From a virus: DNA of 64,000 nucleotides. Below, one piece after another: positions 9,402 through 64,000 of this stretch; the stretch's first letter is position 1, and the number at the start of each line of letters is the position of its first letter. The notes under the pieces are model-generated. The model did not search any database and was not told where the DNA came from. It worked only from the letters and a program-made list of their open reading frames with translations. The position numbers and the translations under genes were made by a program. The stretch lies in IMG/VR virus record IMGVR_UViG_3300034683_000333. The stretch is one strand, 5' to 3'.

Positions 9402-9687
9402 AAGATACGACTTTAATCAAATCGTCATTGAGCATTGTTGCCAACGCTTCAGTTTTTTCATTTGATTCAGTAATTTTAAGAAGAATGATTTTACCATGAA
9501 GAGATTGGATGTAAGAACAATTATAGGGAGTTTCGCATGTATAGACTTCATCACACATATTACAAGCTTCTTCAATGCAATACGGGCAACCTTTTTTGCT
9601 CAAATTCTTCAAAACATCTATGGCTAGCTTACCCTTTTCTGACTATACTTTTTCACAATTAGTACATTTAAACCATAAAATTTTCAC
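9391..9687 (-). CDS. Cys-rich hypothetical protein; recoded (TAG at 9643)
   Basis: GTG at 9687 overlaps the speD TGA and has an AAGGAG SD: MKILWFKCTNCEKV*SEKGKLAIDVLKNLSKKGCPYC…. Confidence 0.7.
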
Positions 9688-10094
9688 GGCTCAGCTCCTT
9701 TCTTTTTACTATTTACTGTTAATATCATTTCAATTGGCGAATAAAATTGCTTGATTGTATCAATGGCATCATTAACATCAAACTCTTTACATGTATAAAT
9801 ATCAACACTAATAAATTGCAATTCCGGCTAAGTGTGCACACTACAAGAACATACGACCGTTCCGCTTAATCCGCAATCCGTTTCCGTGGCAATGGATTCA
9901 TAGGCATTGACCACTGGAACTTGAACAATAATCGGGGGGACTAACACACGCATTCCGATCCGCTTGGTCAACTCATTCATAAATTGGTGTAAATGATCGA
10001 TCTTACCGAGAAGAGTAGCATCGACTCCATAGCAGTCCACGCAAAGTCGCTGGCGAAACGGTCCAACACGATTGTAATCGATGCCGTAACTCAT
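9684..10094 (-). CDS. speD: S-adenosylmethionine decarboxylase (class 1B) homolog; recoded (TAG at 9828); atypical self-cleavage site
   Basis: LCVDCYG…GLSGTVVCSCSVHT*PELQFISVDIYTCKEFD matches the AdoMetDC …HTWPE…VDIYTC motif only if TAG is read through; ends at TGA 9684. Confidence 0.8.
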
Positions 10095-10174
10095 TTTAGA
10101 TACTCCTTTCACGTCTCTCATCTAGTATATTTTTTGTGGTTTGTACTATTAGTATATTCTTTAATGACAAATAA

Positions 10175-10181
10175 ACTAATT
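10175..10181 (+). promoter_or_regulatory. ACTAATT candidate late-promoter motif
   Basis: 51 nt upstream of ATG 10233; the same heptamer recurs 30-71 nt upstream of other recoded operons. Confidence 0.65.
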
Positions 10182-10232
10182 AAACAACACGGAAAAAACA
10201 ATACACAAAACATTTTTTTTACCGAGGGCGAC

Positions 10233-13200
10233 ATGCTTGCATATTTTAAGGTTTACTGGGATTTAGAATATACCGGATTTCCATCGAGTTCATACAGTAA
10301 ATTGGAGAAAATTTATATTTACGAACCAATTCCAGATATCAACATGAGTATCCAGGAACTATGCGACTGGTTAAACGAGAAAAAAGAACGAACGAATACA
10401 AAAGTTGTTCTCGATAAGTATTATTATGGAATTCTTCTGGCAAACTTTTATATGTACCCATTTGAACCAGGCTACATTTACGGATTCATTTCGTTCGTAA
10501 ATCCCATCAAAAATGCCACAATTCGTGGGATTTGGACAAAATCATTGAAGATGTTTGATCATAATGTTATCAAAACAGAAATCGACAGTTAGAATAAAGA
10601 CTTTCTCGTTAAATTAGATGATTTTATTGAATATGACCATACAATACTAAGAGATCTTAATTATTCAAAATGGTATATTTTGTCAAAACAATTCAATGCT
10701 GGTGGTTCAGAAGGATATCTTAAACTAAATTATCAATACGATTTTAGCAAACCAGGAGAAAATTGGTATTACAACACAATAGCAACAAATAAATGGAACC
10801 TATTGGAACTGAACGATATTACAATATCAAACATTACTATTGAACCATTGTCAATTTATAAAGGATATCCAATCATCCCAACCAATCTTATCGACAAATC
10901 TACATGGGAAGTGTCGGATGAAACAACACGGGTGGATTTGGTTAGTTCTTCAATTGAAAATCCACAAAACAAAGTATTTTTGGGTATCGATCCACGAAAA
11001 TTATCTGAATTTAATCGTTGGTTGAGAAGTTTTTGGCTGAATAAAATTTATACTCCACCTAGTTACATAATTATTGAAGAACAAGAAACGGCTGAATTTC
11101 AATGGCTATCCGGTGTAAATGGCGTTTTATTGGATCATTTTATTGTAAAAGCAGATTTTACAACAAACGACATTTCCTTTACATCACTTTTATCAGATGA
11201 TGATTATACTCATATTCCTATTGATCTTTTAGCAAGCGATCTCTACGCAACGGATCGAACATATTCAGAACGTCACTTTACATCACCCATTGCTTTGGAT
11301 GAAGAAGCAATGAAGAGATTGCCAACATATTTTTATGATATGGGTGAATAGCAAAATGAAAAAAATCATCACTATCTATGGGAAACCAACCACGTTCTTG
11401 ATAATTGGTTTTCCAAGGAACGATCCATCGAAGACTATACGGATACGGCAGACTGGATGGTAAACCAAAACAATGCCGTATAGTCCCTCGACGTTACCAC
11501 CTTCAATTGGTTTCAAAAGGTCCATAGTCGATTTCGTCCATTCTGGTCTGATTCCTGGGCCGTAGGAGATATTTCGAGTGCTCAACCCCATTTTTAGGTG
11601 TTTTACAACCTGCGATGGATGGACCAAACCTCCCTGGATCTACTCAATTCCATCAACTGGAATCCACGAGACGTACAATGGTGGGTTGAAAACATCCATA
11701 TTCTTCCCCAAATAAAATTTCATCAGCGATGGTTCATGTGGGAAATCGACGGAACCGACATGAACATCGTCAATAAAAACATCCACACATTCGATGATTT
11801 GCATCCCGTTCAAATAATCGACAATTCCAGTATGGTTCTCCGAGATTGGAACATTGTATTCAATGCCAACGATTCGACCCAAAATTACGTTCTTGTAGAA
11901 AAAACCTGGGAATGGAATCATTCGTGGGAGTTTGAAACCACGGATTCCACGTTTGCTTCAAAACCTAAACAAACTCTCCTCTTAAACCTCAATTTTTACG
12001 ACGACAACACCACACACCTTTTCGATGCAACTCACCTAGTTTCCGATGTAACATTCTCATTTGGATTTGGAGATTCTTCAAATCTTGATTCCACATTTTA
12101 TGAAAATCTAATTACGCAAAAACTTTATGAACAGGATAGCTCCGTTTTCTTCGCTTGGCAGTTCCTTTCGTCAATGTACTTAAATTTTGATGAACCGTTT
12201 AGTGTAAACGAAATTTATTCTAACGATAATTCCACATTCATTTTTCCAGTATCCGTTCCACATATGGATCTAACTCAAATAAACTTTCCTGATACAACAA
12301 TGGATCACCCAACGCTTGGGTTGATTCTTTACAATCTACACGGAATTGAGTTTAAAACGGAAGTAGAACAATTTTTGTTGTGTATCAATTTGATGCACCC
12401 GATTACAAGTGGTTATGTATCCAACCAAAATGGAACATAGATAAGTCATAACAAGTAGCCGTGGGTCATACAATTCAACAATCTTGATCGTCCAGTCTAT
12501 AACGGGCGACGATATGACATGCTCTATCAGAAATCCCTGACAACCAACAAGCCAACAAGTCGTGATGTTACATACATAAACTGGGATATGACGGACATCA
12601 ACGATCCACAACCAAAACCAGTTGTTGACTAGACATTTGATAAGTGGCTCATTGTTCCGTATTCTGATGGAAAATATGACGCATTGGCTGTTTATGAAGA
12701 TTATCCAAGTGATGTGACGAACTACTATAGTATGTCATTGTACGAGGCGTCTCAAGGATGGAGATTTTCAATTATTGTTCTTTACTCTACCGAAGATTCT
12801 TCAGTTGCGTTATCAAATAGTGGTTTTGTTGATGATGCATATAAAAAAGTCACGATTTCGAAAATCAACAACCCCAATTAGAAAATCCGATTTGTCGCTC
12901 CCAACATGTAGATCGTGAGAGATCCTGGTAAGCAAGAATATTACGTCGATCCTACAAGAACCATCGGTAAAATAACATTTTTTGAAAACACGCAAATTCT
13001 TTGCGATGATATCCACGATTACTTCAATGAAATTGGAGTATCACCCGTTTTCATAAGCGATGGTACTACATTTGATATACCAACCCCAAATTATGCATTT
13101 GGAAAAAAATTTACTGATTTTACAGGAAAACTTTATAACATCGACCAAACGACACAAGTAATAAAAGAATTATCTGGTAAAAGTATCGCCAATAAGCTTT

Positions 13201-14789
13201 TTAACTAGAGTTCATTGGATTCAACAAGCCTATGGAAGCTTGAAGCGATTACTGCCCCGATGAATAACCTCGCTATTCGAATGTACCACCGTTAGTTCGC
13301 TTGGGCTTCACAATAGGATGCATTTAACTACCCACAACAACATTTGAGACAGGCAAATGCTTTCGTCGGTATGTTAAGTGATTCACACGTTTATCTATCT
13401 TAGTATCCAATGAATAGAAATTACATTGTACGTGGCAATGGAGTTCGTAATCCATTGATTTATCCTAATACAGGAGAAAAAAATCCAAGCGCTTATTATT
13501 ATGACTATGACTATTATTATTCATTACCAATGACATTTGCTTATTATGATAAAATAGAAGATACATTAACAACAAAATCAAATAATACAATGGAATCTTG
13601 GATTTCTTGGATTCTACTCTTATATGGAAAGAGAATAGTTAAATTCAACGAAAAATACACTGATAAAACTAGTTATGTAATATATGAAAATGGTTCTATT
13701 GGTTCACCACTTCAAAAAGTCGATGTAACAACTAACATTCCAATAAAATAGCACGATAGTTCAATATCATATCCAATGATTTTGTCAACAGATAATTTTG
13801 ATACATCAACGACAATTTATCAATCAAAAAATATTATACACGGAGCACCATTTATTGATTTAACGGCTGTACTTTCAAATATAAACTACGGCGAATCGTT
13901 TAGTGCTAACCAATATAATGGATCACTTTTCATTAACGAAAATGTACTCCGATTTGATGCAACATATGAACAATTGCTAACTCCTACAAACATCGTGGGA
14001 TTAAGTAGCGGAAACTACATTTTTGCGGCATTGTGGTCGAATGTTACTTCAACACAAAATGCTCATACACCAAACTACTTTTTACAAATAATGCATCAAA
14101 ACACTATCTCCGGTGCTTATACCCTTTAGGATGTAGCTCATCCAAAGACAGAACTTCTCTCACACGAAAATCCAAGTGTAGACATGCTTGAAAACTCGAA
14201 TACAGGATATTTCAGTAAGTAGTATGCTATGTTTCGTTTGAATGCACAATCATCTGATAGATTGTTAACATCAGAATATTTTGATGATTTAAATTACTGG
14301 GTATATGATATTGGATATTGGGGTAGTGATATAGAGACTTATAATAATAATGAAATTATAGAAAAAGCAACAACTTTGCCACCTGGAAAATGTATGCTAA
14401 TTCAAAAAGATCTACCAAATATTCTTTTTGATGATGAAAATGATCTTGATGTATAGTATTATGGAGTTATCGACTCTTCAGGAAATGTATATTGTGCCAC
14501 AACAAACAATTATGGTGATGCATATTAGGCAAGCACAATTGACTTAAATGAATTTATTGCTCGTGGCGTTCAAGATAATATTGATAGAAATGATCCAAAT
14601 CTTGACTCAGACGATGATTAGAGGATGAAATGGTTCTACAGCATTGTCGATGAAACTGAAGAGTATGTACAGAATTTTATAAATATTGTAAAAAATTAGA
14701 ATATTCCACCAAAAACCGGAAACTTATATATGATTCTTCCTTATTCCGAGTATCTAAGTAAGAAAATGATAAAATATTTGATTGAGTAA
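10233..14789 (+). CDS. Large (1518 aa) putative virion structural protein; recoded (about 20 in-frame TAG)
   Basis: Track ORFs 9993, 10680, 11598, 12684, 12915, 13410, 13776 and 14229 share one frame and are separated only by TAG. GAGG SD + ATG 10233; TAA 14787-14789, then a terminator. The structural role is inferred from size and composition. Confidence 0.85.
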
Positions 14790-14842: not shown

Positions 14843-15931
14843 TTAGATTAGATCTGATTCGTCATTGAATCGATCATAAACAACTGAATCCATGATAACT
14901 TCATTTGTATACTTTAGCGGTTTCAACCAAGGATTTGTTTGTTCAGTAACAACTGATGTAAGTCCACTTAAGTTAGTTTCACTTGAAAAAAGACCATGTT
15001 TTTCCAATAAAATTTTTCCAATCGACCACTGAAAAAGATCTTGATTTCCTTCCAATTGAACAACCAATTCTTTAAAAATATTATACTTATGAGAAGAAAA
15101 AACAACTTGTGAACCAGCATTTCCCCTTTTAAATGCCGTTGGAACATGAAGCATACGGTAGGTGGTTCCAGATCGTGTGATCACGGTTGAATTGTTTGCA
15201 AAAACCACCCAGTCGTGACCAACGAATGCACCCTGAAGAAACGATTGCAAATTACTACTCGATGGTTCAACGGTGAATGCGGTTTCGGAATTCTCAAGAA
15301 GGGATTTAGTAGCTTCAAAATCCCACGAATAGAATCCAACATTCGATACATCGAGATAAAATGTCCACTGCATCCGATCCAAAATTTGATAAGTTTGAAA
15401 GACAGTCCATGGTTCACCCACGGAAATTAAAGTTGCTTCTAGAGACGCCAGAGTGGAATCATCACCCAAGGAAATTGATTGGAGCTTGGTCGTCCTTGTG
15501 CCGTCCCACCCAGCAAGAACCCAATTATCTGTTGTCTATGATAGATGGAGCGGGGTTTTTGATTTGACGAACGAGACCGTCTTGGAAGAATCGGTGCTAT
15601 CCAGAAAAAACCTACATTCGTCGTATTCAGAAATGAGAAACGACAAGATTTGACTGTTGTTTATCTGAAACGATGCAAAGAAAAGATTTTTATCTGTATC
15701 GTTCCACAACTTTAAGAGTTCCATTCGATCAACGATTAATGTTTCTGGGCATTTAAATGATTTGTACGCACCAGAAAGTGCTTCAGCAGTTATATAAAGT
15801 TGATTATTGTTTACCAAAATACAATTACAATATAAATCTCCAAATGGATAAACTTCACACAAGTGTGTTACGTCAGAATAAAAATGTTCATCAATCTATT
15901 GCGTTAAAAAGTTGTGCCAAAGGAATTTCAT
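14843..15931 (-). CDS. Hypothetical (362 aa) putative structural protein; recoded (2 TAG)
   Basis: GGAGG SD + ATG 15931 (MKFLWHNFLTQ*IDEHF…); joins track ORFs 15536 and 14843; TAA stop. Confidence 0.8.
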
Positions 15932-15946
15932 TCGGCATCCTCCATA

Positions 15947-18256
15947 TTATATTGTCGCATCCTTACTTGCTATAATTTCCTGTAATTCACGATTACCAAT
16001 TACAAATCGAAGAGCAATATCTTCCGATGTTAGCTTCTTAAAATGTAACTTCAATTGATCCAAATTTTTTAATAGCCGTTCTAAATACAAATTTTTCTCA
16101 TCTACTGATTTATCAATAACAATGTAAAGAAGTTTCAAAATATCTGCATCCGTAAGGTTTTCACTTGATACGAGTTCAAAACCAAGACCATATTCATATA
16201 ACAAGTTTACTGGTATGCTAACCGTTTTTCCGCCATGAAAATCAAATCGAATCAACCGTTGTGTTAATTGATTATCCATCTGATGAAGCTTAAATTCGAG
16301 TTTCCATTGGTTCCTCGTATCGTCCCGATGAATCATGATTTTTGATAACTCTAGAACATCTCCATCCATTGCCGTTTTAAGAAAAAGAAGACCGTCATAA
16401 TCCACATAGAATGTGTTGGGTTGATCGGCATGAATCGGGACAATCTGAAAATTGGTTTTATCAGCAATGATATTCAATTGTCTGTTCCCATTTTGATTTC
16501 TTAATGCGAAAAGGTAAGAAGGAACTTTATTTTTCCACGAAATCTTTGCAAGTGAAGTATTGTCCAACGGGGTTGACACAAAACCCGTGTCTTCCTAGAG
16601 GCCGTAACATTGCTCACTGGAATCCAAGACCATTTTGGGCTGGGCACGTGACAAAAGACTTTGATCTTCAATCTCCGAAAGATTTTGTCCCGATGACCAT
16701 GTTTCCATCGTTACCTGAGCGCTCTTAATAGAATCAACAAAAACGGGATGAAATACGTAAGATTGTATATCAATAAATCCAAGTTCTTTCCATATGTCCA
16801 TAATATACGTAATGGCAGATGAATCTCTCTAGCTTGTTGTCTACTGAGAGTTTGTGTAATGATAAGGTACTGTATTTAATGCAATTAAAGTCTCGAAGCT
16901 ATAATAAGATTTATAGTTCTAAATGGTACCATCAGTGCTTGTATAATCAGTTTCATTTAAAATATTTTCAAGTGATTTTGTAATATAAGCCGATGTAACA
17001 AGTAATTTAATACTTTCTTCATCGTTTGTTGGATAAAGTGTATCTGGTAAAAGGAGCGACACTGGTTTTTGGCTTCTAATAAAATCCAAAGATAATTCAA
17101 CATTTAACATATCATCAAGTTGACCGGGTGTTGCATCTGGAAAAATGGAATATAACATGTTTGAGATATCCATCATGTCGAATGTGTAATACAAAATAGT
17201 GTCTTTCTAATATGAAATTCCAACTTTATCCCCATCACGTGTAAAATTCATAACCTATCTCGGACTTATGGTATGCTAAGTATATGGAAAATCACTCCGT
17301 TTTACAAAGCAACATTCATAATCTTTAGATGATAATGCCCTACTATTGCTCATCTTACAAATTGGAAATAACCACGAAAGAGCATTGGATGTAATGTCAT
17401 AAACGTCCTTAAAGTATGTATCAACAACTGTTGTAAATTTAAAATAATCATCAAAATCGTAATTATATAAATATTCAATTGCTAAGTTGGTGTGGTAGTC
17501 CAATTTCTCAGTACCGTCAACAGCAAACCAGCTAACAACTTTCATTTTATCTGAATCTGGTTCAAGATAACAATCAAAAAGAGATTGACCTAGATATTTC
17601 ATATCACCAAAATACAAGCTGTAAATTGGGTAAAGAGCTAAGTTTGGTTTCCAATCATCCTGCTTTCCAATTGCGCCTAGAAAAACGACAATATGATCAT
17701 TTACGGTACCGGTGTTTTTAATTGCATATAACAATTCATGAGGAAGCGCTTCCTTAACTTCTAAAACTTCATGTGTTTCAATGTTAAGCTTTACAGCAAT
17801 TGGCTTAAGTGAGTCAAATATGTATTTAGGTATCACACTTCCTTTACTTGCTTTATGAATGAGCTTTTTATCTATAATTAACTAATTATAATACAACTAG
17901 TAAGTGTCTTCAGTCACATATTTAAGCATCTATTTTGATTTATCATTAAACAATGAAATCGTCTATGCTGGCTCTTGTTCATAATTCAATAAAAGTTTAG
18001 CATACCAGTCTAAATAGACGGCACCAGGAGAACAAAAAACGTCAGTTAGCTTGTTGACAAACACACCATTGGAATATAAAATGAAGTCGTCGTTTTCAAA
18101 GAGTTTAAGCGTTTTTGTGAAGTCCCACACATCAACATTATCCATGACTGGGGTAGATTCATAAAATTCATTCCATTTAGATAATGACGTGGGAAGTTCG
18201 AAGTTTATATAGGACTATTTCGGTAAAAGCGTTCTAAAATAAAACGGAGAAAGCAT
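15947..18256 (-). CDS. Hypothetical (769 aa) putative structural protein; recoded (about 12 TAG)
   Basis: AAGGAG SD + ATG 18256; joins track ORFs 17963, 17276, 16919, 16595 and 15947; TAA stop; ACTAATT at 18291-18297. Confidence 0.85.
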
Positions 18257-18322
18257 TATAGTTGTTCTCCTTATCTCAAAAGTTTTGATAAATTAGTGAC
18301 CTTTAGGAGGATTGATACCAGA

Positions 18323-18412: not shown

Positions 18413-18540
18413 TATATGTTTTTACTCTTTTATACATAATAGGATATGTGATTGGATTGTTTATTGCTTGGTATTTTGATCGTGATCTTTTATTGTATAA
18501 GCACGAAAGAAAAATAGGTAAAAGTAGGATTTATGTGTAA
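18409..18540 (+). CDS. 43-aa single-TM peptide
   Basis: ATGA overlap with the previous gene; MIYVFTLLYIIGYVIGLFIAWYFDRDLLLYKHERKIGKSRIYV*; followed by a terminator. Confidence 0.6.
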   Translation: MIYVFTLLYIIGYVIGLFIAWYFDRDLLLYKHERKIGKSRIYV

Positions 18541-18571
18541 AAAAAAAAGTGGGGGACCATGATCCCCCACT
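18541..18571. terminator. Terminator between convergent genes
   Basis: A-tract, then stem AGTGGGGGA/TCCCCCACT. Confidence 0.75.
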
Positions 18572-18580
18572 CAACAAAAA

Positions 18581-22777: not shown

Positions 22778-25700
22778 TTACCGAATATATTTTACAGTTG
22801 CTTTGTATGATAAATTGGTACCATCACTTGTTGTCACTTTAATACCACCTATTTGTTTTTTATTTTTAAATTTACCCTTAATTTTTACCTTTTTAGCTGT
22901 AGTTGTGAAGAAACCGAACTTCGGAGGCTCCATTTGCTCAAATTGATCTTTCACGGTAAAATCATAATTATAGTTCCATATAGACAACATTTGTTTTGCT
23001 AACTTGTCGTGTGGAATCATTGGACCAATAACAAACAAGTAATCACCAGCTTCCCTATCCTATAATCTAAACGACTGTAACATATTTTTCTATTCTGGAA
23101 TAATAATATGTTCCAGGTTCGTATCAAGAATACCACCAAGCGGTGTATTCAAAGGTGTGTCAGATTTACGAACGATACGTACTGGAGATACTTGTAAATA
23201 CATATAAGTAGGATATTTGCGTGTCATTTTCAACCGCATGGTAGTGGAATCAACATTTGATAGTGTATAATCACAACCATTTACATAACTAGTCGAACTT
23301 GAATATCTGTGTGTATACGTAAAAGCAAACATATATGGAGACAACTTTGATGCATCATACGTTCCATCCATGGTAAAGTCCATGGTGACAGTAGACAAAG
23401 AATCCATGAAAAATCCATTACGAGCTTCGTTTTCGCTAATGTTGCTAGGTGAATAATATCCTATTACATGATCCTAAAAATTCCAATCAACCGAATTGTC
23501 TATGTAATCCAAAACAAGCGTGAATCCAAAAAGATCCAAACTATCAGCAAGATTTTCGACAGATTGATCATATTGTTCTGGTATCGTAGCAACATCCGTT
23601 GCAACGGTTGGTAAAGGTGTTTTATCTGAATGAAGAACAACATATGAAAATGGATATCCGGTTATGTCAGTAACAAAGTATGAAAAATCAACTGGTGTAA
23701 AATCTGGATATTTAAGTTCCGATGAAGCAAAATTATAAGCAAATCGATTATACTTCAAAGATATGGTACCAACGACTCGTGGTTTGGTTAGCTTATAAAG
23801 TTCTCGTTGAATTACATATTCATAATTCGGATAAAAATTATCATACATAGCATTGGAAAATGGAACAAAAACAAATTCAGTATTATTCTGCAAATCAATT
23901 GTTAATAAATTCCGTCCTTGTTCATTGGACATAATGGCTTTTGTTCCACCATTAGAACTAGCGTTACCATAAACAATTTGATCCTATGTAACCGATCCAT
24001 TTTTACACGAATCAACAAAAGCGGTTTCACTGTTAATATAAGCAGAACTAAACGGATTAAGTGCTGGATGAGATAAAAAGGTTTCTTTTGAAAAAGAATT
24101 TGAATAATCAACAAATGTTAAGTCCAGATCTATAAAAACATCATTGAAATTGTATAGATTTCTATCTTGGGATTGACTAAGTGTATATACTATGTAAGGA
24201 AAATAACCATCTACAGTATAGTCAATTGAATCGTATACATCATCTGAGAATACTATGGTATTGTCCCATAAATCATAATTCCAAGTCGATAACCAAAATA
24301 CGTCAAAATCAAGAGATACACGCTTCACAAATTCTGGAAATACGATGGATGTCTTGAATGAAGTGGCGTCCCAAAGCTGGGGTACATTGTATCCAACAAC
24401 CTTCCCTGAACGAGTTTTTTGACGGTTGAAATCAAAAAGAACGATCGGAAGACCATTGTGCCAACGCACCGTTGGATGAAGCGAATTCCAGAAAATGTAC
24501 TCATGTTCCAAATCAACATCTTCAAAATTTTCATAAAAGATCAATCCATCATAAATGTCAACCGCATCGCTTTCAAACAAAAGATGATTTCGTGCATCAA
24601 TGTATCTAAGTTGATCCATTTCCCTATCATAATAAACAATAAACTTTGGATTTGGATCAAACCAATATATTAGAGTTTCTTGTTGGGGTTCTGCAATTGA
24701 GGCATTAAAAGCCTTATACAATAGTTGATGATAGTTATGAATGTTGTCAATTGAATAACAAAGATGTCCATAAGTAGAATCAACATTATCGTTGGCGTAG
24801 TGATACGTGCAATTCACCTTATTGCAATAAACAATGATCTCATCAAATGTCTGCACATCATAATTATAAAAAGTAAGTGACAAAATGTAATAATCATCAT
24901 TTTCATAAAGACGATCCACAATTACTTCACCAAAACGCTTTACCAGTTCAATATGTTGATAAGTTGTGTCGTTTATGATGATATCAATGGTATGCTCATG
25001 TTTATTGATAATTACGTTTGTTGGTGATAAAGTAGAATCCGTATAGAATGTCATTGGCAACTTATCAAGATATGCTGGGTTGAATGTACCATCGGGGCTT
25101 AGTTCGCCACCATAGAGAAGATTATTGTCATAAAACTCTATAAAGAAACGTGAATCGTCGAGGTTTGTTTTATAAAGATTGTAAACACCCAATTTTTCAT
25201 CGATTATCGCATTCGCAGGAACATTCATTGAAAAAAGTCTTCCAGAAACTTCATTGTAAAACCACCAAATGTCCCCATATTTTGCCAACGGATAGGCATA
25301 AAGAAGACCCGTAACATCCCAGGAATGAGTCAAACTAGCTTGAGCTGATTCGTCGTGCCACCAAACGGATTTCTAGGTCTTATCAGTTGTGGCGTTGAGG
25401 TTTCCAAACACGGTGTGATCCTGAATGTAGGGAATTGATACTTCCAAAAACTTATCAAAATAAGGAAGACTCACGTAGACTAATGGATTACTTGAAAAAT
25501 CGAATGACAAATGAGAAATCCAAGGAATCTTCTTTGCAATCTCCCACTGAAGCGGTGAATGGATGTTTTTAACCACCAATTCTGTACTCATACCCGTGGA
25601 ATCGGTGACATCCAAATGAATGGCAAAATCATTCACCCGAGTAATCGTCGTTTCGACGATGTTTGACCAATCCACCGCAGGATTTGGCGTTCCCCAGTGA

Positions 25701-28700
25701 AAAACGGTTTCTTGATTTGTTAGATCATAAGTTCCAAGATCAAGCGAACCGGTTGTAAATCTCCTATACGTTTCTCGATCTTCGGATACAAGATCATCTG
25801 CCGCCTCCCACTTGAGCCAAAAATGCATTCTCGTCACAAAATCCCCCGTAACTTGAAGGGTCGTCCCATCAAATGAAAAGGTCGCTGGAACAAAATCCGT
25901 CGTCCAGTCGTTTGATAGGGTGGCCCATAGATGATTTCGATCGTCATTGAAATTGCAACCCGAAACGGATGTGTTGAGATTTGTGATGTCCACCTGACGC
26001 CAGTTGAATGCAAGCTCCAGATTGATCTTGGCATCTCTTAAAAGCGCCTAGTGAGTGGAATCGGCTGTAAGATCGTACTTGTATATTGCCAATTTATCCT
26101 TTTCAGTTCGATTGAACGTTCTGCCAAAACCCAACACCCAGTCGTTACCTTCGTTGGTTGTCCAAACCGTTCCCGTTTCCGGGTTCCATTGCTTTGGTGA
26201 AAGAACTGGAAAATAGATATTTGAGTGGAGAATGGGCTTTTGGACCAATTTTTCCGGTTGTTTTACTGGATATAGAAATTCATTTGTCGTTTTATCAAAC
26301 GTACCGGAAACGGGTTTTACAAGTCGTGTCCAAACCGTAGACTAAATTTCGGGGTCCTTAGACTAATAACCATACGGTAACAGCACAAAATCGTCACACG
26401 AAATGACACCATCGGTTTCAATTAATCCAACTCCTTCTGTAGTACGCTGAATCCAGCGCATATCATAAAATCGATTCGTTTTAAATACGTAATTTGCCCA
26501 TACATATCCATTATAGGACGCCGAAAAACAATCATTCGTTGGAACATAAAAATACTTCCACATTGCATTGTGATAATTTTCCAGACTAATATACGTTGAG
26601 TCAAAATTCTATTTACCAAACTAACCAAGACCACTTAACCACATTTCCTTCTTTTCTGGATGAAGTGTTGATGTATAAATCGTTGGAACATTATCAAGAA
26701 CTTCTTCATTGAGCAGTTCTGGAACCTTGTAGGATGGTGCGTAATAATATCGTTTTTTATCGCTAGCTTCGAGTAATACATATTTACTAATATCTGTTTT
26801 ATAACTTATTGTGTAATAGTTATCAAACTTTGCTCCTAGAAGCCTTGTATGAGTATTCACATCTAGGTGTTGTCCGTAAATAGAACTTAATTCTTCGGTA
26901 TAATAGGGCTTCCCATTTGTTCCTTGTCGAGATGAACGTAATTCCAATGTATTTTGAGTGTGTATAAGTAATTTAGGATAATTTATTGATAACCAACCAA
27001 AATCATACCGATCATAAATTTGGTATTCAGATGGATATGGAAATTGAATGTCATATTCATCTTTAAAAATCAAATCATAATTGTCCGATATTCTATCGAA
27101 CCTGGACAACCACAAATACATTCGATCCTGCGGCTAACGCTGTGCCATTAGAGTTCCATGCGCCAAAATCTAACTATACACATTATCATTATCTAAAACA
27201 TATTCATACTTTGTGCTGTTAAATGTTATTCTATTACCGATTCTTGAATGACTAACATTTGGTGGATTAGAAAGATCCACGATAAATTGATAAAGCGAAC
27301 CACTCGCATCAAAAAATATTGGATCTAATTCTATTGTCCATATAAACCATCTGTTTGTCTTGTGATCCTAAAACGTCTAGTGTTTATTATATCCTGTGTT
27401 ATTATAATTCCATAAGAGACTTTCATCACTAAGATAATAAGCATCTTCTTCGACCCATTCCGTACCATCCACAAGACTCATAAACACAATCATAGGTCGT
27501 TTGCTTTCTGAATAATAGTTATCTGTAACGTCTTCTGGGCCGATGAATACAAATTTTGTGTCGTCAATTTGTTCAAATGCCTCTGCTAACCCAATGTACG
27601 TATTGGGAATGTCTGGTAAATCAATCCAAGTTGATGTATCTAGATCAAAAAGAGCTAAATTCTAAGGCTTGGTAAATCCACCCTAACTAAATCGCTTATT
27701 GATCATGTGAACCTTATTGTTCCTAACAGTAGATGGCAACCACATCGTATCTGATGTATTGACACCAAGTCTCTCAACTGAACGGTTTTCTAAATCATAT
27801 AATAGTGTCCCAACCCCATCAGGATTCCATCCACCAATAGTACCCTACGAGTACTTACGGACAATTAAATATCTACTATTAAAATAAAAAATATTAAGAT
27901 TTGTCATTCCAGCATTATCATTTATCTAACTTTGTAATGATGTTCCGTCCCATCGAAATACTTTACCAGTACCTTGATCGTAGTGAAACAGTTGTGTATT
28001 ATCTACAGCAAAAACGGAATCCGTGAAAAATGAATAAAACAATTCGGAGATCTATGTATTTTTCTGAAATACCTTCAACGATGGATTATTGAATACTGTC
28101 TGGTCAGCATTAACCGTTACAGAGTCATAATCATATAAAATATCGTTTTTAAAGCTGTTAGTTATAACAATGGATGTTTCATCAATATGCGTCACATCAA
28201 ATGATCGCACATCATATTCAGGTAATTCATATCCTTTATAAATAAAAGTTGATGCTGTATAATCCGGTGAAATGGTTAATGTAACAAAACTATCAACAAA
28301 TGACTAATGTTTGGTAAATACGCCAGATGAATCAATTTGTAAGAAACCACGATTACCTGGAATATCCTCTTCTGCTACATCAAACTTACCCTTTAATGAA
28401 CTGTGAAGTGAATAGTATTCTGTATTATATATAAAATCATAATAACCAAGACTCTAATTTCCTGTAATATCGTTTATTGTGCCACCATAAATATTATAGA
28501 CTTGCTTATATGCTGGATTCTAATAGGCTGCTTGTACAATATATGGTAATGTTCTAGGAATAGTAATTTCTTGTACTGAATCAACAAAAATACTACCCAC
28601 ATTAATAAGACTCTTTCCAAAAATTGTAGGATCAAGTGAATTTATCAACCAACCACCGCTACTTTGTATGTTATAAAATTTTACATTGTCCCAAAAACGT

Positions 28701-30313
28701 GTTTCAACAAAATCATACGGACGAGATATTACACCGAATGGCGTCCGCTTGACACACGGATTGCTCTTTGACCACTGACCCAACGTAGCAACCGGAGCCG
28801 CATCATAGGGTCGGTTTCTTGAATACGTAAACGTTCCAACCATTGGCGTTCCATTGATAAACGAAATCCTCGAAACATCGCTCACGATTGTAACATCAGA
28901 CGAAAGTTTAAGCTTGTTACGATTGATCCAATAAATTCCAGTCGTAGTATCCACCAAAACATCTGTGAGCGAAAAAGTATCTTGGTCGATAACCTAATTT
29001 GAAATGGAATAATCGATAAGTAGGTTATTCAACGGATGAAGAATAAGCTTTGTTGAATCGATGAGATTAGAAACTTCATGCTGTAATGTATCTGAATTAA
29101 AAACTACCTGGATCGGCACATACCCCACAACACCGGAATTGAATTGAATCATCATTTGATAGCACGAAACATAAGTTGTTTCATCCGTGTGTTTATGTAT
29201 GTTTGAAGATTGAATTTTTATGAGCTTAGCTTGTGAAAGTAAAGAATTGTCTATAAAGTTTAAAACATTAAACGTTGTATCAAATGAACCGTTTTTTCCG
29301 GTATACCACTTATTTCTTACAGATTCGAAAGTTGATCGTACTTCACCTTCTTTATGTTCTGGAGCATATTGTAGTAGTAATTTGTGTGTTGGAATAGTAT
29401 AAATATCATTAGAATTTATAAGCGGCGGAGTCGATAAACCCTAATTATATGTTGGCTAGTCATTCCACGAATATCCATAAAATGCGGAACCGTAGTTTAC
29501 TGATGTACTATCCAAGCCTCGAATAGAATATTCTTTTGTTATTGGAGAATATTGAAAAAACTTCCAATTCCAATCGAATGAATACTTATATGTTCTTATT
29601 ACAAGGTTGGTAGAATCCACATACATATCATAGAAAACTGAAGTCACATTATTTGCTGGTTGTCCAGAAATGAGTGCAATGAATGATTTTCTTCGGTGCT
29701 TAAAAAGATTATAAAATTTTTCCTGAATCGTAAATGAACTCTTAATAATGTCGTTTGGTGGAACAAAAAGATGCTTAATCGCTTTCTTATTATATACCGC
29801 ATCCACAACCTTTGAAAAATCCGTGAAATCCGTTTCCAAAACCTTAAAAGAATGAAGAATCAATTGGGGTTTTATTCTTTGATGGGTTGAATCAATAAGT
29901 AAATCTTCTACAATAGGATCACTCACTTTAGCTAATACGTCATCGAAATTGATGGAAAGATTACTATCAAGATAATTATACCAATTGTTTACAAGATCTT
30001 TTCCATATTGTTCGTTACTAGCAAGATTATTTTCCAATTGGATCATTTCATCAACAAAAATATTATTTAACCGGCTTGCATAAACATTGAAACAAAACCA
30101 TTTTAACGAATCGTTTCCTATAGTCTTATAATCAAAGAGTGCATTCTTGTTATTTTCGAGTGTAAAATCACGCAGTGGTGTCTTGATGGCAACCCATTCC
30201 ACACCAGGCACGGCATAAATGGACTCATCAACATATTCTGCAAAAAATTCTTGTGTTTCTCTCCGCTAATCAATAATCTTCTAATCCAGGTTTTTAACCG
30301 AAAATTTATTCAT
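22778..30313 (-). CDS. Giant (2511 aa) putative tail/baseplate-associated protein with beta-propeller-like segments; recoded (about 27 TAG)
   Basis: One frame with no TAA/TGA from ATG 30313 (GGAG SD) to TAA 22778. It links ten track ORFs and fills the apparently empty 27122-28519 and 28958-29455 gaps. An internal gene boundary at a TAG cannot be excluded. Confidence 0.8.
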
Positions 30314-33346: not shown

Positions 33347-34417
33347 TTACATGGCTAATTTTAGTAAGTTCTTTGCTGCATTTACATCTCTATCGTGTTT
33401 AACATCACAATTAGGACACTTCCATTCTCGTAATGCTAAATTCTTTACTTCTATATTTTTATATCCACATTCACTACATATTTGACTTGATGCATAGTTT
33501 TGTGAGGCTATTATTATTTCTCTCCCATACCATTTTGCCTTATATTCTAATATTCTTCTAAATTCTGCCCATGATACTTCACTTATTGATTTTGATAGAT
33601 GTTTGTTTTGTTGCATATTCTTTACTCTCAAATCCTCTAAAACTATAACTTGGTTTTCGTTTATAATTTTAGAGGACAATTTATGAAGAAAATCTTTTCT
33701 TTGATTAGTTATTTTTTCATGTAATTTAGCAAGTTTTTGTCTATTTTTCTCATAATTTTTACTACACTTTTGTTTCCTTGATAAATCTCTTTGAAGTTTC
33801 TTTATTCTTTTTTCAGTTCTTCTTAGCCATTTAGGATTTTCTACTTTTGTTCCATCTGAAAATACTGCAAACTCTTTTAATCCTAAGTCTATACCTATTT
33901 TCTTGTCTACCTTAGGTAAAAATTGAATTTCTTCTTCTACAAGTATTGAAACATAGTATTTACCTGTTGGCGTTTTAGATATAGTTACAGATTTTATAAT
34001 TCCTAAAAACTGTCTATGTTGCTTAATCTTTATCATTGTTTTCAATTTTGGTATTTTCAAATAACTATTTTCTATTTTGACGGTTCCATTTTGATTATTT
34101 GTTGTATAAGATTGATAGCCCTTCTTTTTCTTGAATTTAGGAAAACCTATCTTTTTATCTCTAAAAAAGTTTTTATATGCTTTTTCTAAATTTATTTGTG
34201 CATTAGCAAGAGCAAGACTATCTACTTCTCTTAGAAATGGATATTCTTTTTTATATTGTGCAGGAGTTGTTTTAAGGATTTTCCCTGTTTGTTTATAATG
34301 GTCTATCTTATCATTAAGCATTTTATTATATATAAACCTTACACAACCGAATGTTTTAGCAAAAAATTCCTTTTGTTCTTTTGTTGGGTATATCCTGTAT
34401 TTATAGGCTTTTAGCAA
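33347..34417 (-). CDS. tnpB: RNA-guided endonuclease TnpB
   Basis: KAYKYRIYPT HTH, GIDLGLK, VIVLEDL, CSECG…CPNC Zn finger, HDRDVNAAKN. Confidence 0.95.
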   Translation of the reverse strand: MLKAYKYRIYPTKEQKEFFAKTFGCVRFIYNKMLNDKIDHYKQTGKILKTTPAQYKKEYPFLREVDSLALANAQINLEKAYKNFFRDKKIGFPKFKKKKGYQSYTTNNQNGTVKIENSYLKIPKLKTMIKIKQHRQFLGIIKSVTISKTPTGKYYVSILVEEEIQFLPKVDKKIGIDLGLKEFAVFSDGTKVENPKWLRRTEKRIKKLQRDLSRKQKCSKNYEKNRQKLAKLHEKITNQRKDFLHKLSSKIINENQVIVLEDLRVKNMQQNKHLSKSISEVSWAEFRRILEYKAKWYGREIIIASQNYASSQICSECGYKNIEVKNLALREWKCPNCDVKHDRDVNAAKNLLKLAM

Positions 34418-45912: not shown

Positions 45913-46890
45913 TTATTTGTAGAGTTTAAGAATCATTTGTTCCGCATAATTATGGTCAAACGACAAATCCGCAAACGGACCTTTTTCAGATAGCTCTTCA
46001 ATTTCTTCAATTTGTGATGCCAAAAGATCATTACATACTTTCCATTCCAACTGCCCATGCTTAATCTTCAAAATGAATTCAATTGCATCACTGGGAAGTG
46101 GGAATTTCAACTCACCATGAAGATAAAGATTTTTTGCTTGATACAAAATCCGAAAAGCATGAGACACGGCTTTCCAATCAATTCCTTCATTGGCCTCAGC
46201 CATTCTAGCACGATGACCGTAGATTTTCCATTCTCGTTCGATTCTTTCTTTGAATTCCCCCGTCCTAATGTTCAGTTGATGGGCCTTCCCATTAACAATT
46301 AACATGCTATTTTTAATAAAACAGAGATTTTCGGCGTTGATCGCTTGAACAAAATCATCGGCATAATCGAGCAATCGACTGTCTTCATCAATATGCCTAA
46401 ACTTCTCAACCAATTTACTTAATACGCTAAGACGACTGCCTTTTAGTCCATACTTTTTTGCTTGTTGATAACAATAACCCAAAAATGCTTTGTTCTTTTT
46501 TAATTGCAATAACTTTTTGCAATTAAAGAAGTCTTTGTGTAATGAATTATAAATAACTACATTTTCGTTTGTAATACTAAACAATAAATCGATTGCAACT
46601 GTATCGCCTTTAGACAGCAGGGCGTAAAATTTTTGAATTGACCAGAGACCAAAATCAACGTCATTGGGGCCATTTCGTGTATTATTATCACTAGTTGAAA
46701 AATGTACTGACTCCGGTTGTTTGTTTAAAATACATGAACTTAAAGATGGTAAAAAGATGCCTCGAAAATCTTCATCAGAATTTTCGGTTGCCGTGCCATA
46801 CAAATGACTCCCGAATTTTGTTAGATACAATAACTCAACATTGTTTTCTTTACACTTTTGAATGGCAAAGTCTAGCATATTGATCTCCAC
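45913..46890 (-). CDS. DNA polymerase beta-superfamily nucleotidyltransferase (RlaP/YcgL-like)
   Basis: FGSHLYG…SDEDFRGIF (GS…DxD) motif. Confidence 0.85.
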   Translation of the reverse strand: MEINMLDFAIQKCKENNVELLYLTKFGSHLYGTATENSDEDFRGIFLPSLSSCILNKQPESVHFSTSDNNTRNGPNDVDFGLWSIQKFYALLSKGDTVAIDLLFSITNENVVIYNSLHKDFFNCKKLLQLKKNKAFLGYCYQQAKKYGLKGSRLSVLSKLVEKFRHIDEDSRLLDYADDFVQAINAENLCFIKNSMLIVNGKAHQLNIRTGEFKERIEREWKIYGHRARMAEANEGIDWKAVSHAFRILYQAKNLYLHGELKFPLPSDAIEFILKIKHGQLEWKVCNDLLASQIEEIEELSEKGPFADLSFDHNYAEQMILKLYK

Positions 46891-50539: not shown

Positions 50540-51745
50540 TTATTCCCCCTTTTTTGGTTTTTTTACTTTCTTTAAGAATTTGTTTATAACACCCGAAAAA
50601 ATACTTTGAGCACGCTTTTTAAACTACTTTGTCTTATCTGAATCAACTTCAAGTGATTCCCTGCGAACGACCGTTGACAATTGCGGTTCACGAACGAGCT
50701 TTCCAAAGCGGTACGTATCGGAAAGCCTGGCATTGATGTGCTTATTTGTAAAATATCGAAAAACATTTAAAATTCCAGCCAATGGTTTTGTATTTTGGGA
50801 AAGAATCGTTTGAACCATCACACGATCATTATCCGATAGATGAGCAAACGGAATATACAACAAGGTTTTTAAGATCTTTTGAACCTTTTCATCCTGTTTG
50901 GAAAACCACTCGTTCCAAAGATCGTTCATAACCCCATCATCGTCTCTTCCCACGGTGGCCTGACGAAACACATCGTGGGCACCCAAAGGAGACGAGATGA
51001 CCGTATTGTAGGTTCCCATGGGGGTCCAGGTTTTTGTGGCAAGGGTTCCAGCCGACACCTGCTTGGCACGCTCGGAAAGATCAGTGTTTACGACCACAAA
51101 ATCCAAGCGTCTTCCCAATGAATCGCTAGTCTTGAAGGCTCTTACCACACGAAGGGCTTCACGTTCTGGAACACCCTTTCCACGGATCTTTCCAATCACC
51201 ACGGCCTCACGCAATGATCGGAACATGCGACGGCGGTTGTTGTCATTAAAAATATCCGATAATTGCCTCGAATATTTCTTCATGCGCTTTTGAATCGAGT
51301 TTTCAATTTTTACCTACTCTTTTTCACCAATGGACGAACGATAATTTCCGATACCACCCGCCTCACGAATTCCCTTCATGAGTTTTGCAACAAAGGCACC
51401 GTCCGGTTTATTGAATCCAACATTGTTTTTGTAGATCGTTCTCATGGCAAGCTGTTCGGCATCGGTTTGAAATTCCTATAGAAACAACATTTGCTCAAAT
51501 GCATAATCTTTATCTTTTTCAATCTTTCTTCGGATATCTCTCCACGATCTTCTTGAATTGAGTAAATCTTTGTTAGAAAATTCTCCAATACCATGGGCAA
51601 CCAATTCACTTTCTTTCTAGAACTTTTTATATTCCTATCGGGAAACAACCTTACCTTTTCGTACATAATTTATACGAGTTTTAGGGTATTTCCCCTTCCT
51701 TCTACCACGAACATCCAATGCTTTCGTAAATTTAATATCATTCAT
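50540..51745 (-). CDS. Hypothetical (401 aa) protein with basic N-terminus; recoded (5 TAG)
   Basis: ATG 51745 overlaps the upstream TGA; TAGs at 51635, 51617, 51476, 51314 and 50624; TAA 50540. Confidence 0.8.
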
Positions 51746-62088: not shown

Positions 62089-62165
62089 TGGACCCCGTGG
62101 CAGGATTCGAACCCGCACCCAACGGATTTAGAGTCCGTCGCTCTAACCAATTGAGCTACACGGGG
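62089..62165 (-). tRNA. tRNA with CUA anticodon (amber-decoding), 77 nt, CCA encoded
   Basis: CCCCGTG-TA-GCTC AATTGGTTA GAGC-G-ACGGA CT CTA AA TCCGT-TGGGT-GCGGG TTCGAAT CCTGC-CACGGGG-T-CCA; all four stems pair; anticodon at 62129-62131. Confidence 0.95.
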
Positions 62166-62251
62166 TCATTTATCTATATATCAATTTTATGTTGAACCTC
62201 TCCCACTTACGCTTCGCTAAGAAGTGGGAGATTCTTGAGAAGTTTGGTAGA

Positions 62252-63493
62252 TTACACTACCCTTATTCTCAAAGGGTGGTTCAAACACCCATTATCCCTC
62301 GCAACTTGTATTGCTCTGGGAATGCCTTTGATATATTTTCTTAATATATTCAATGCCCCATTTACGTCAGCATTAATTAACATACCATTGTTTGTTTTAA
62401 AAAGACCTCTCGTTATTCTTCTTGACTTATTGTAATTAGCTTTATTTATTTCTTCTAAATCTATTGCACTACACCCACTTGTATAAGATTCATTAATCAT
62501 TACTACCTTTAACCCTACCAACTCTGCCTTATATTTTATTTTATTGACTAATTCTTGTTGTGGTATTTGCACAAAACTCTTAGCGAAATTCTCTTGTTTA
62601 ATTCCTCTAATATCACCTATAACTATTGTATTACAATTCATTGTAAGTGCTAATTCTACTATTTTTTTACTTATTTTGTGTAATTTATCTTTAATATAAT
62701 CATTTCTTTTCTTTTGTAATTTTATTATTTTCTTTGTTCTTTTAAAATTTTTGCTATCATTACATTGTTTCATAGCAATAGAAGTTAATCTTGCTATTTC
62801 TTTATTGTAATAAGCATTTTTACTTTTTAAATGCTTACCACTAAAAATAATACATTGTTCATTATCTTTAAATACACAAGTTGCAAGATTATCTAATCCT
62901 AAATCAATTGCCATTACATTATCACCAGTTACTTTATTTATAATTTCATTTTCCCATATTATTAGTAAATACCATCTTTTAGAAGAATTATTCCATTGTA
63001 ATTTAATTTGATTAATCCTCGATAAATTCACAGGTATTTTGACATTCTTCATGTCAAAATTTAAACTTTGAACCTGAAACTTATCTTGTATTGCCTTTGA
63101 TAATGATAGCTTTAATATACCATTTTTATACCTTATCCCTGCTGTTGTAAATATTATCTCGTTCTTTTTATTATTTGTATTCTTAAACTTTGGTGGTTTA
63201 GGCAATCCTAAATATTTATTTGGATTTTTCTTATAATCTTTTATTGAAGCAAAATAAGATTTCCAATCCTGTTCTAACATCTTCAAACACCATTGATAAG
63301 TGTGCGAATGTAGAAATTGTGTATGATAATTTTGCTTATATAACTTTTCAGTTTCATAATAGTTTTTAAAACCATTTTCTCTATTTTCATAGTTTGCTAT
63401 GTTATATAGCTTTGTTGTATGATATGATAATTCTTCTATAATATTTTGTTGTAATTGATTTAATTTAGGATAGTATTTAAAACTTACTTTCAT
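62252..63493 (-). CDS. tnpB: RNA-guided endonuclease TnpB (IS1341-type)
   Basis: MAIDLGLDNLA, IVIGD, INESYTS, INADVNGALNI. Confidence 0.9.
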   Translation of the reverse strand: MKVSFKYYPKLNQLQQNIIEELSYHTTKLYNIANYENRENGFKNYYETEKLYKQNYHTQFLHSHTYQWCLKMLEQDWKSYFASIKDYKKNPNKYLGLPKPPKFKNTNNKKNEIIFTTAGIRYKNGILKLSLSKAIQDKFQVQSLNFDMKNVKIPVNLSRINQIKLQWNNSSKRWYLLIIWENEIINKVTGDNVMAIDLGLDNLATCVFKDNEQCIIFSGKHLKSKNAYYNKEIARLTSIAMKQCNDSKNFKRTKKIIKLQKKRNDYIKDKLHKISKKIVELALTMNCNTIVIGDIRGIKQENFAKSFVQIPQQELVNKIKYKAELVGLKVVMINESYTSGCSAIDLEEINKANYNKSRRITRGLFKTNNGMLINADVNGALNILRKYIKGIPRAIQVARDNGCLNHPLRIRVV

Positions 63494-63515
63494 ATTTTCA
63501 CCTCCTTTTAGTTTT

Positions 63516-63544
63516 ATTATATCATAATGTTATCACCTTGTCAA
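63516..63544 (-). promoter_or_regulatory. Consensus sigma70 promoter of tnpB
   Basis: TTGACA-17 nt-TATAAT, then an AAGGAGG SD. Confidence 0.8.
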
Positions 63545-63584
63545 CTATGTTTTTTTATGATATAATATATTTGGGGGTGATAAT

Positions 63585-63740
63585 ATGGCTATTTCAAAGG
63601 ATAATACAAGGACTCTTATTACTATTCCAAAAGAGTTAAAAAAACAACTAGAAGAAATTGCTAAGCAAGATAATAGAAGTTTTAATAATTTAGTGGTCAA
63701 AATTCTAAAAGACTATGTTAGCAATTCATCTCCCACCTAA
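63585..63740 (+). CDS. Ribbon-helix-helix (CopG/Arc-like) DNA-binding protein, 51 aa
   Basis: TRTLITIPKELKKQLEEIAKQDNRSFNNLVVKILKDY pattern; below the track cutoff. Confidence 0.75.
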   Translation: MAISKDNTRTLITIPKELKKQLEEIAKQDNRSFNNLVVKILKDYVSNSSPT

Positions 63741-64000
63741 AGAGGTGGGAGTCTTCTTGCTTGTTTTCTGATAAAAACTTTTTGTAAATATTCTGCAAAA
63801 ATTCTTCATCAACAACCTCAAATGAATAATCAATTTTATCCAAAAACTTCTTCATTTGATTTATATAATCATTGATATTGTCCATATCTTTATTACATGT
63901 GACATCCTGTGTCAAGTCATTACCAACTCCAAATTCAACGTCTTCTTCCTCCATTGGCAATTTTTTTATCATTGATTTTAACACTTTCAGTGAATCATCA
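63718..64000 (-). CDS. 3' part of a hypothetical gene entering from the right edge; its C-terminus is altered by the IS insertion
   Basis: The frame is open to 64000. Removing the IS at TTTAT|CATAA gives the native end …IYKKFLS*(TAA). Confidence 0.6.
   Translation of the reverse strand, partial: DDSLKVLKSMIKKLPMEEEDVEFGVGNDLTQDVTCNKDMDNINDYINQMKKFLDKIDYSFEVVDEEFLQNIYKKFLSENKQEDSHLFRWEMNC

Follow-up and report, generated by a model that had tools for sequence, protein, structure and literature searches.

The window considered here is a 64,000-nucleotide stretch of a virus genome (IMG/VR record IMGVR_UViG_3300034683_000333), and its positions 62089-62165 on the minus strand are a real transfer RNA (tRNA) gene with the anticodon CUA. 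The corresponding codon, TAG, is a sense codon in this phage; codon comparison with a related contig shows that it means tryptophan, and the gene is predicted to be a tRNA-Trp(CUA). We consider it likely, with a probability of about three in four, that this tRNA decodes the in-frame TAGs of the phage as tryptophan and that it is charged by a tryptophanyl-tRNA synthetase (TrpRS) of the phage rather than by the host enzyme.

The gene was called by ARAGORN as the sole tRNA of the window (the accompanying label “Pyl” reflects the anticodon only) and is matched over its full length by the Rfam tRNA model RF00005 at 72.8 bits (gathering score 29, E-value 5e-14). In the acceptor stem CCCCGUG is paired with CACGGGG, the first five pairs being C1:G72, C2:G71, C3:G70, C4:G69 and G5:C68; the 5′ strand is followed by U8 and A9, and the 3′ strand by the discriminator U73 and a CCA that is encoded in the gene. 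The D arm reads GCUC-AAUUGGUUA-GAGC, followed by G26, the anticodon arm ACGGA-CUCUAAA-UCCGU and the T arm GCGGG-UUCGAAU-CCUGC, and the variable loop (UGGGU) has 5 nt. All stem pairs are standard or G:U, with G51:U63 as the single non-Watson-Crick pair. The anticodon occupies 62129..62131 on the minus strand (62131-62129 in the reading direction), inside the loop CU-CUA-AA, which appears on the plus strand as TTTAGAG at 62127-62133. The cloverleaf, C1:G72, U73, the short variable loop and the anticodon loop had all been described in a first-pass annotation of the window, and each of them is borne out by ARAGORN, Rfam and our own reading of the sequence. The minimum free energy fold of the tRNA differs from the cloverleaf, as is normal for tRNAs folded as single sequences. 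No further tRNA was found in the window or in the approximately 47 kb of flanking genome, together about 111 kb of readable sequence. The isotype could not be taken from similarity: BLAST of the tRNA against phage records returned generic and uninformative matches (tRNA-Arg, tRNA-Ile), and the exact D arm is shared by bacterial Asp, Met, His, Ile, Trp and Thr tRNAs.

Translated with the standard code, the window is a mosaic of short open reading frames (ORFs), which become genes of 1598, 2511, 1498, 860, 769 and 761 amino acids when TAG is read through. The 37 ORFs of the window contain 116 in-frame TAGs, compared to 282 TGG codons, and the TAGs are spread over about 22 genes. As stops, TAA (24) and TGA (10) are used, while TAG terminates no ORF except IscB and one other. 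The 2511-residue gene (22778..30313, minus), with 27 in-frame TAGs, depends most heavily on the suppressor tRNA in the window. Twenty occur in a late gene of 1598 residues (9993..14789, plus), twelve in the 769-residue gene (15947..18256, minus), five in a gene of 401 residues (50540..51745, minus), two in a gene of 362 residues (14843..15931, minus) and one, at 9828-9830, in an AdoMetDC-like gene (9684..10121, minus; Pfam PF02675, 6e-15). No internal TAG is present in the genes of replication or mobile type, namely those for the SNF2 helicase, Metallophos, RlaP, two TnpB proteins and IscB. Since the CUA anticodon and the in-frame TAGs, in genes that end in TAA or TGA, belong to the same genome, the amber suppressor is predicted to be in active use.

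The amino acid inserted at TAG was read from contig L171 (JGI 3300005882), a relative recovered through a fragment 79% identical to the AdoMetDC-like protein. Its DNA is 83% identical to the window over positions 6226-13176 and 67% identical over 14125-18250, and its orthologs share 57-69% amino acid identity with the large TAG-rich proteins. Five orthologous genes were aligned codon by codon between the window and L171, with fifteen TAG/TGG exchanges in the 1598-residue gene, six in the 769-residue gene and one in the 362-residue gene. Apart from 11 TAG-TAG pairs, a TAG is aligned with a different codon at 45 sites, and in 22 of these (49%) the partner is TGG; the others are Tyr (5), Gly (3), Arg, Leu, Phe and Gln (2 each, or 4% for Gln) and seven singletons, one of which is Lys (1/45). 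Viewed from TGG, the pairs comprise 41 W-W, 22 W-TAG and 8 W-Y, which makes TAG the commonest non-identical partner of tryptophan. When TAG was scored with the partner distribution of each amino acid in these same alignments, the log-likelihood was -104.4 for Trp, -165.8 for Tyr and -203.5 for Gln. On the basis of the codon alignments and the partner log-likelihoods, TAG is read as Trp, and Gln, the code-15 assignment, is excluded, as is Tyr. The first-pass annotation had left the choice between Trp and Tyr, from which the anticodon loop differs by one base each; the alignments settle it in favour of the former and place the latter 61 log-likelihood units lower. The comparison of C1:G72, made in that annotation, with the determinant of archaeal and eukaryotic tyrosyl-tRNA synthetases (TyrRS) is not relevant here.

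A conserved motif points in the same direction: the single TAG of the AdoMetDC-like gene replaces the W of HTWPE, a position that is W in all aligned solved structures (2iii, 1vr7, 1tlu, 1tmi, 3iwb). More distant alignments were less discriminating. When the 401-residue protein is aligned with its paralog and homolog family, two of its TAGs are placed in columns of aromatic residues, rich in F and Y, and the partner log-likelihoods obtained by hand calculation (W about -82, F about -79, Y about -81) exclude Gln and leave W, F and Y unseparated, for which reason the closer relative L171 was needed for the decision. Strain polymorphisms at TAG were of no use, the contigs of this phage from other samples being 100% identical to the window, and the homologs retrieved with the AdoMetDC-like protein were all fragments that stop at the TAG. 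The public protein records of the lineage (P0003, P0127 / L049:2403-6197) are predicted “with_TAG=Q”. Because TAG=Q was used in gene prediction, the database sequences show Gln at sites that most likely receive Trp in the phage.

Two further observations concern these comparisons. Around the self-cleavage serine the AdoMetDC-like protein has CSCS, versus SESH in T. maritima, and it may not be a standard pyruvoyl decarboxylase. Between L171 and window positions 6226-20326 a sharp mosaic was found, with about 99% protein identity at the SNF2 region and 57-69% in the adjacent TAG-rich genes, a pattern that points to rapid evolution or exchange of virion and tail genes.

The first-pass annotation had also proposed that the tRNA is charged by a phage synthetase encoded outside the window, and a divergent TrpRS, with residues changed at positions predicted to read the tRNA, is indeed encoded in this genome, about 28.5 kb beyond the end of the window. 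The flanks were reached by exact-protein look-ups, which lead from the window to contigs L030, L037 and L039 and from there to L040 and L041, and the walked contigs overlap the window at 100% identity. The total genome is at least 195 kb long, as the TrpRS protein is also present on a contig of 195,227 bp. The synthetase (P0004) is a PF00579 protein of 405 amino acids at L041:10520-11737, corresponding to window coordinates 92512-93729, and its gene contains no TAG. NCBIfam TrpRS models match it with E-values from 9e-31 to 1e-7, compared to only 1e-6 for TyrRS models, with all scores below the equivalog cut-offs; in the PDB it matches the Fe-S TrpRS of T. maritima best (2g36, 1e-22). HLGH, KMSSS, the Asp212 of the tryptophan pocket and the cluster cysteines C313/C335/C342/C345 have all been kept, as in bacterial TrpRSs of class Ic and the Fe-S subtype. 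Such an enzyme is not generic to amber-recoded phages, given that class Ib synthetases are absent from five other IMG/VR phages with a tRNA(CUA), of which three are complete. No member of the release-factor families was found among the called genes of the walked loci, that is, within the readable sequence.

A gene for a CCA-adding enzyme (L041:7970-9478) is located 1 kb upstream of the TrpRS gene, at about window +90.1 to +91.6 kb. The enzyme carries an HD domain, and it is present although the tRNA gene already encodes its CCA. A gene of the RlaP RNA-repair family lies within the window (45913-46890). The CCA-adding enzyme of the phage may serve in tRNA repair.

The nearest relatives of the phage TrpRS, P0005 (48% identical) and P0006 (31% identical), are encoded on the short contigs L047 and L048 with TAG-interrupted ORFs, one of them of 502 amino acids with 9 TAGs; all three TrpRSs of this clade are found on contigs with such ORFs. 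They were aligned with 117 other TrpRSs (120 homologs in total) using MAFFT, and the histidine of HIGH, the pocket aspartate, the KMS motif and the four cysteines are conserved across the set. Two nearly invariant columns distinguish the phage clade. At the position of P0004 Gln232 all 117 other enzymes have Glu and the three phage enzymes have Gln, while at the position of Tyr300 Asp is found in 116 of the 117 and Tyr in all three phage enzymes. In addition, the segment corresponding to P0004 123-201 comprises 14-15 residues in 115 of the 117 others (16-17 in the remaining two) and 74-78 residues in the phage clade, which amounts to about 60 extra residues inside the acceptor-binding CP1 domain.

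For comparison with the E. coli enzyme, P0004 199-244 was aligned with E. coli TrpRS 122-167 (chain 8i1w_A), where Gln232 corresponds to Glu155 and the insertion falls within CP1 (E. coli residues 86-139). Tyr300 was equated with E. coli Asp226 through the conserved T-D-P/S loop (Thr225-Asp226-Ser227 in E. coli), and the residue aligned with Ser227 is the usual Pro in P0004 and P0005 and Ser in P0006. In the co-crystal of E. coli TrpRS with its tRNA, the discriminator G73 is bound by Glu155 through two hydrogen bonds, N4 of C35 donates one to Asp226, and Ser227 reads A36; Tyr100 and Arg106 of CP1, together with Arg158 of the aminoacylation domain, touch the phosphates of the first five acceptor pairs, and Glu119 and Ile121 make water-mediated contacts (PMC12135181). 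Glu as reader of G73 and Asp as reader of C35 have thus been replaced by Gln232 and Tyr300 in an enzyme whose presumed substrate has U73 and U35. As both reading residues have changed alongside the two bases, synthetase and tRNA co-vary, and the tRNA-reading residues of the phage TrpRS appear to have been re-tuned from C35/G73 to U35/U73. The hydroxyl of Tyr300 would donate to O4 of U35, where the carboxylate of Asp could not.

On the tRNA side, U73 is found for the G73 of bacterial tRNA-Trp, the anticodon is C34 U35 A36 for C34 C35 A36, with only position 35 changed, and C:G stands at pairs 1-4 for A1:U72, G2-C71, G3-C70 and G4-C69. The minor tRNA-Trp identity elements A9 and G5:C68 are present and constitute weak evidence, both being common in other tRNAs. 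Among the determinants of E. coli glutaminyl-tRNA synthetase (GlnRS), which are U35, a weak U1:A72 pair, G3:C70 and G73, only U35 occurs in this tRNA; the acceptor positions relevant to that enzyme are C1:G72, C3:G70 and U73. Amidotransferases, for their part, need U1-A72. The role of G5:C68 as a minor tRNA-Trp element has been reported (PMC12135181, PMC9976931). C35 is a major determinant for TrpRS, B. subtilis TrpRS needs G2-C71, G3-C70 and G4-C69, and in E. coli an amber tRNA-Trp is charged with Gln by GlnRS, which reads U35 (PMC9976931). Further requirements of GlnRS are the pairs 1-72 and 3-70 and the discriminator. Orthogonality of the phage pair is plausible because its tRNA has C1:G72, C3:G70 and U73 and lacks C35: charging by the host TrpRS and GlnRS would not be expected, and the phage TrpRS would be the enzyme that loads it. 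Another natural tRNA(CUA) with C1:G72, C2:G71, U73 and an encoded CCA was encountered at L050:10533-10610 (Ga0068862_100000678), where it belongs to a cluster of tRNA genes (Tyr, Gly, Glu, Thr); the genes around it are free of in-frame TAGs and a TrpRS is lacking within 12 kb, which leaves it neutral with respect to the pairing.

In the proposed course of infection, the TAG-free genes, including those for the TrpRS, the CCA-adding enzyme and replication, would be translated first under the standard code of the host. The phage TrpRS would then load tRNA(CUA) with tryptophan and, as Trp-tRNA(CUA) accumulates, the TAG-bearing genes, which encode mostly very large orphan proteins of late or virion type, would become translatable. 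The mechanism follows the code-change logic proposed for the TGA-recoded Jade phages and shown biochemically for the AP1 TrpRS:tRNA(UCA). A stronger version of the proposal can be put forward only tentatively, at a little short of even odds. It holds that TrpRS and tRNA-Trp(CUA) form a natural UAG-decoding pair that is orthogonal in both directions, the change from CCA/G73 to CUA/U73 having required two point substitutions, Asp→Tyr at the reader of C35 and Glu→Gln at the reader of G73, and a CP1 insertion that reads the flipped acceptor stem; the pair would provide the phage with a private 21st “channel” for an ordinary amino acid, and the small TrpRS clade would mark an undescribed phage code in which TAG is Trp.

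Several points weigh against charging by the phage enzyme. The tRNA (62.1 kb) and the TrpRS gene (about 92.5 kb, both in window coordinates) are approximately 30 kb apart and lie in separate operons, and in the unread 80 kb or so of the genome there could be a further tRNA or synthetase gene, or one for a release factor. The equivalence of Tyr300 with Asp226 rests on the T-D-P/S motif and not on a structural superposition, and no tRNA-bearing relative was recovered with which conservation of C1:G72 and U73 in the lineage could be compared. Reading of this tRNA by host enzymes is unlikely under identity rules that come from E. coli and B. subtilis and may not be those of the host. Finally, G73U alone lowers the activity of B. 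subtilis TrpRS only about 17-fold (PMC12135181).

This modest penalty would suit an explanation in which the tRNA does carry tryptophan but receives it from the host TrpRS, with the phage enzyme adding capacity or replacing a host enzyme that is shut down in infection. Many large phages carry synthetases without recoding, and the late proteins are rich in tryptophan (TGG and TAG together about 3-4%), both of which fit such a role. We nevertheless regard this explanation as improbable, as the tRNA lacks A1:U72, has C:G at the three pairs where B. subtilis TrpRS needs G:C, and lacks C35, a loss that in E. coli gives an amber tRNA-Trp Gln and not Trp (PMC9976931). It also leaves unexplained why two invariant tRNA-reading residues were replaced in all three enzymes of the clade.

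Roughly the same low probability is given to ambiguous decoding, in which the phage TrpRS would share the charging of the tRNA with a host enzyme that recognises U35, either GlnRS or lysyl-tRNA synthetase (LysRS), resulting in mixed residues at TAG. GlnRS relies strongly on U35 and tRNA-Trp(CUA) is mischarged by the LysRS of plants (PMC9976931), the loop CUCUAAA is one base from the CUU loop of Lys, and 28 of the 29 phage tRNA(CUA) studied by Seki et al. inserted Gln in E. coli extract (PMC12636597). On the other hand, the GlnRS determinants at 1-72, 3-70 and 73 are absent, Gln and Lys are as rare among the TAG-aligned sites as given above, and a mixture of residues would be costly at the invariant tryptophan of a catalytic motif such as HTWPE.

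A phage tRNA(CUA) is usually an ordinary code-15 suppressor (10.1101/2021.08.26.457843; PMC12636597), a tRNA-Gln(CUA) that the host GlnRS charges, as it does in crAss-like and Lak phages, and this is also what the public gene callers assumed with TAG=Q. Such a suppressor is very improbable here, with a log-likelihood 99 units below that of Trp, TGG outnumbering Gln among the TAG partners by 49% to 4%, a TAG at the W of HTWPE and an acceptor stem without GlnRS elements. Equally remote is a supF-like tRNA-Tyr(CUA), or one for another aromatic residue, to which the single-base distance of the loop from GUA, the second rank of Tyr among the TAG partners (5/45) and the distant columns rich in F and Y would lend themselves, but which is opposed by the 61-unit deficit, by a variable loop of only 5 nt in place of the long variable arm of bacterial tRNA-Tyr, and by a phage enzyme that is a TrpRS with an intact tryptophan pocket.

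Charging of tRNA-Trp(CUA) by the phage TrpRS, the explanation we prefer, has its closest known counterparts in pairs that read UGA. Jade phages encode a TrpRS:tRNA-Trp(UCA) code-change pair, in a module of suppressor tRNA, synthetase and release factor that forms a standard-code operon upstream of the lysis genes (Borges et al., 10.1101/2021.08.26.457843), and the TrpRS:tRNA(UCA) pairs of phages AP1 and HF2 were tested by Seki et al. (2025), with AP1 proving orthogonal in E. coli (PMC12636597). Like the phage described here, these have their own TrpRS, encoded in the standard code, and a suppressor tRNA for tryptophan at stop codons in late genes. They differ in reading UGA with the anticodon UCA (code 4) and in having G73 (AP1) or A73 (HF2), whereas the present tRNA reads UAG with CUA and has U73 and an acceptor stem flipped to C:G. 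They also differ in layout: the UGA pairs are encoded in one operon, in Jade together with RF1, while here the distance between tRNA and TrpRS, and the lack of a release factor in 111 kb, depart from the “code change module” as Borges et al. define it.

Code-15 phages (crAss-like, Lak) resemble this phage in having amber codons in late and structural genes, a phage tRNA(CUA) and TAG-free early genes, but they insert Gln with the help of the host GlnRS, whereas here TAG is Trp and a dedicated synthetase is present. The E. coli suppressor Su7 (supU), which derives from tRNA-Trp, shows the same CCA→CUA change at position 35; it keeps the body of tRNA-Trp and is charged mainly with Gln (PMC9976931), whereas the present tRNA has lost the acceptor and discriminator features of GlnRS and TrpRS and has a matching enzyme. 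Engineered tryptophan amber pairs (PMC2965240) likewise combine a TrpRS with a tRNA(CUA) insulated through changes in the acceptor stem and discriminator; those were built from yeast components, while this pair apparently evolved naturally from a bacterial TrpRS of the Fe-S type. Among the NCBI tables, TAG as Trp is listed only as genetic code 32, for the plastids of Balanophoraceae, an unrelated plant lineage. To our knowledge, no dedicated synthetase is associated with that assignment.

In phages, the reassignments observed by Borges et al. were only TAG→Gln and TGA→Trp (10.1101/2021.08.26.457843), and neither a phage with TAG→Trp nor a TAG-to-Trp pair was found in the literature searched. 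The case can be classed as a phage code-change pair with a codon assignment, TAG=Trp, that is undescribed for phages in that literature. Next to TAG→Gln and TGA→Trp (or Gly), the only reassignments reported by phage surveys, TAG→Trp would be a third kind, one that current gene callers mistranslate as Gln. The pair would also represent a compact natural co-evolution of synthetase and tRNA, in which two bases read in the crystal (C35, G73) and the two residues that read them have changed, a mutational hypothesis that is directly testable. For genetic code expansion, natural amber-decoding pairs that escape the host GlnRS are scarce, and the tryptophan pocket has proven engineerable in the UGA pair of AP1. 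For phage biology, the arrangement supports the view that late genes are gated by a code switch under phage control.

Directly upstream of the tRNA lies an IS605-type insertion sequence (IS) element (62192..63777, minus), whose boundary was set by BLAST of independent IS copies. It contains a TnpB gene (62252-63493, minus; Pfam OrfB_IS605, Cas12f1-like_TNB) and an RHH gene (63585-63740, plus), and a leader of 26 nt (62166..62191, minus) separates its right end from tRNA position 1. A sigma-70-like promoter of TnpB at 63544-63516, which matched 12 of 12 consensus positions in the promoter scan, points toward the tRNA, and no separate sigma-70-like promoter or terminator was found between the two; the tRNA may now be transcribed from the IS. 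Where the right end of TnpB meets the tRNA (62166-62260, minus), the guide of an omega-RNA would equal the tRNA leader, and cleavage by RNase P could define the 3′ end of the omega-RNA.

Copies of this element that are 99.7-99.9% identical are present in several contigs of unrelated phages that differ in their types of capsid and terminase (L028, L029, L031, L032 and L033), and the element appears to have been recently active across phages of this habitat. Contigs of the same phage from other samples mostly break at it. In L027 (JGI 3300033987 Ga0310150_000584) the DNA-polymerase side of this phage (99.9% identical) is joined exactly at the IS to a different left flank, comprising another SNF2 gene, a truncated RRXRR, a methyltransferase and PhoH; it results either from chimeric assembly or from recombination at the IS. 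Two other mobile genes are found in the window. An IscB gene (RRXRR and HNH, 435-445 aa; 3269-4848, minus) lies directly downstream of its HEARO/omega RNA (Rfam RF02033, 163 bits, 4628-4848), and a second TnpB (HTH_OrfB_IS605, OrfB_IS605 and TNB; 33347-34417, minus), about 26-28% identical to the first, is located within the block of recoded genes.

Relatives of the phage are few. GenBank phages gave no match to 24 kb of it by megablast or to the 2511-residue protein by tblastn, IMG/VR contained no relative of that protein or of the TrpRS, and the large TAG-rich proteins have almost no PHROGs, Pfam or PDB matches. The homolog search with the 769-residue protein returned only itself, and the 30-mer at the window end is absent from the JGI metagenome collection. 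The paralog family of the 401-residue protein (window 50540-51745; L046:5965-8663 and L046:4859-5911) shares a conserved “NNVGFNKPDG” domain (phrog_21015), and its members in related TAG-recoded phages vary in length between about 100 and more than 1200 amino acids. The sequencing runs in which this phage occurs, none of them listed as an RNA run, are labelled as subsurface metagenomes, and runs from oil fields and crude oil contain only small shares of it.

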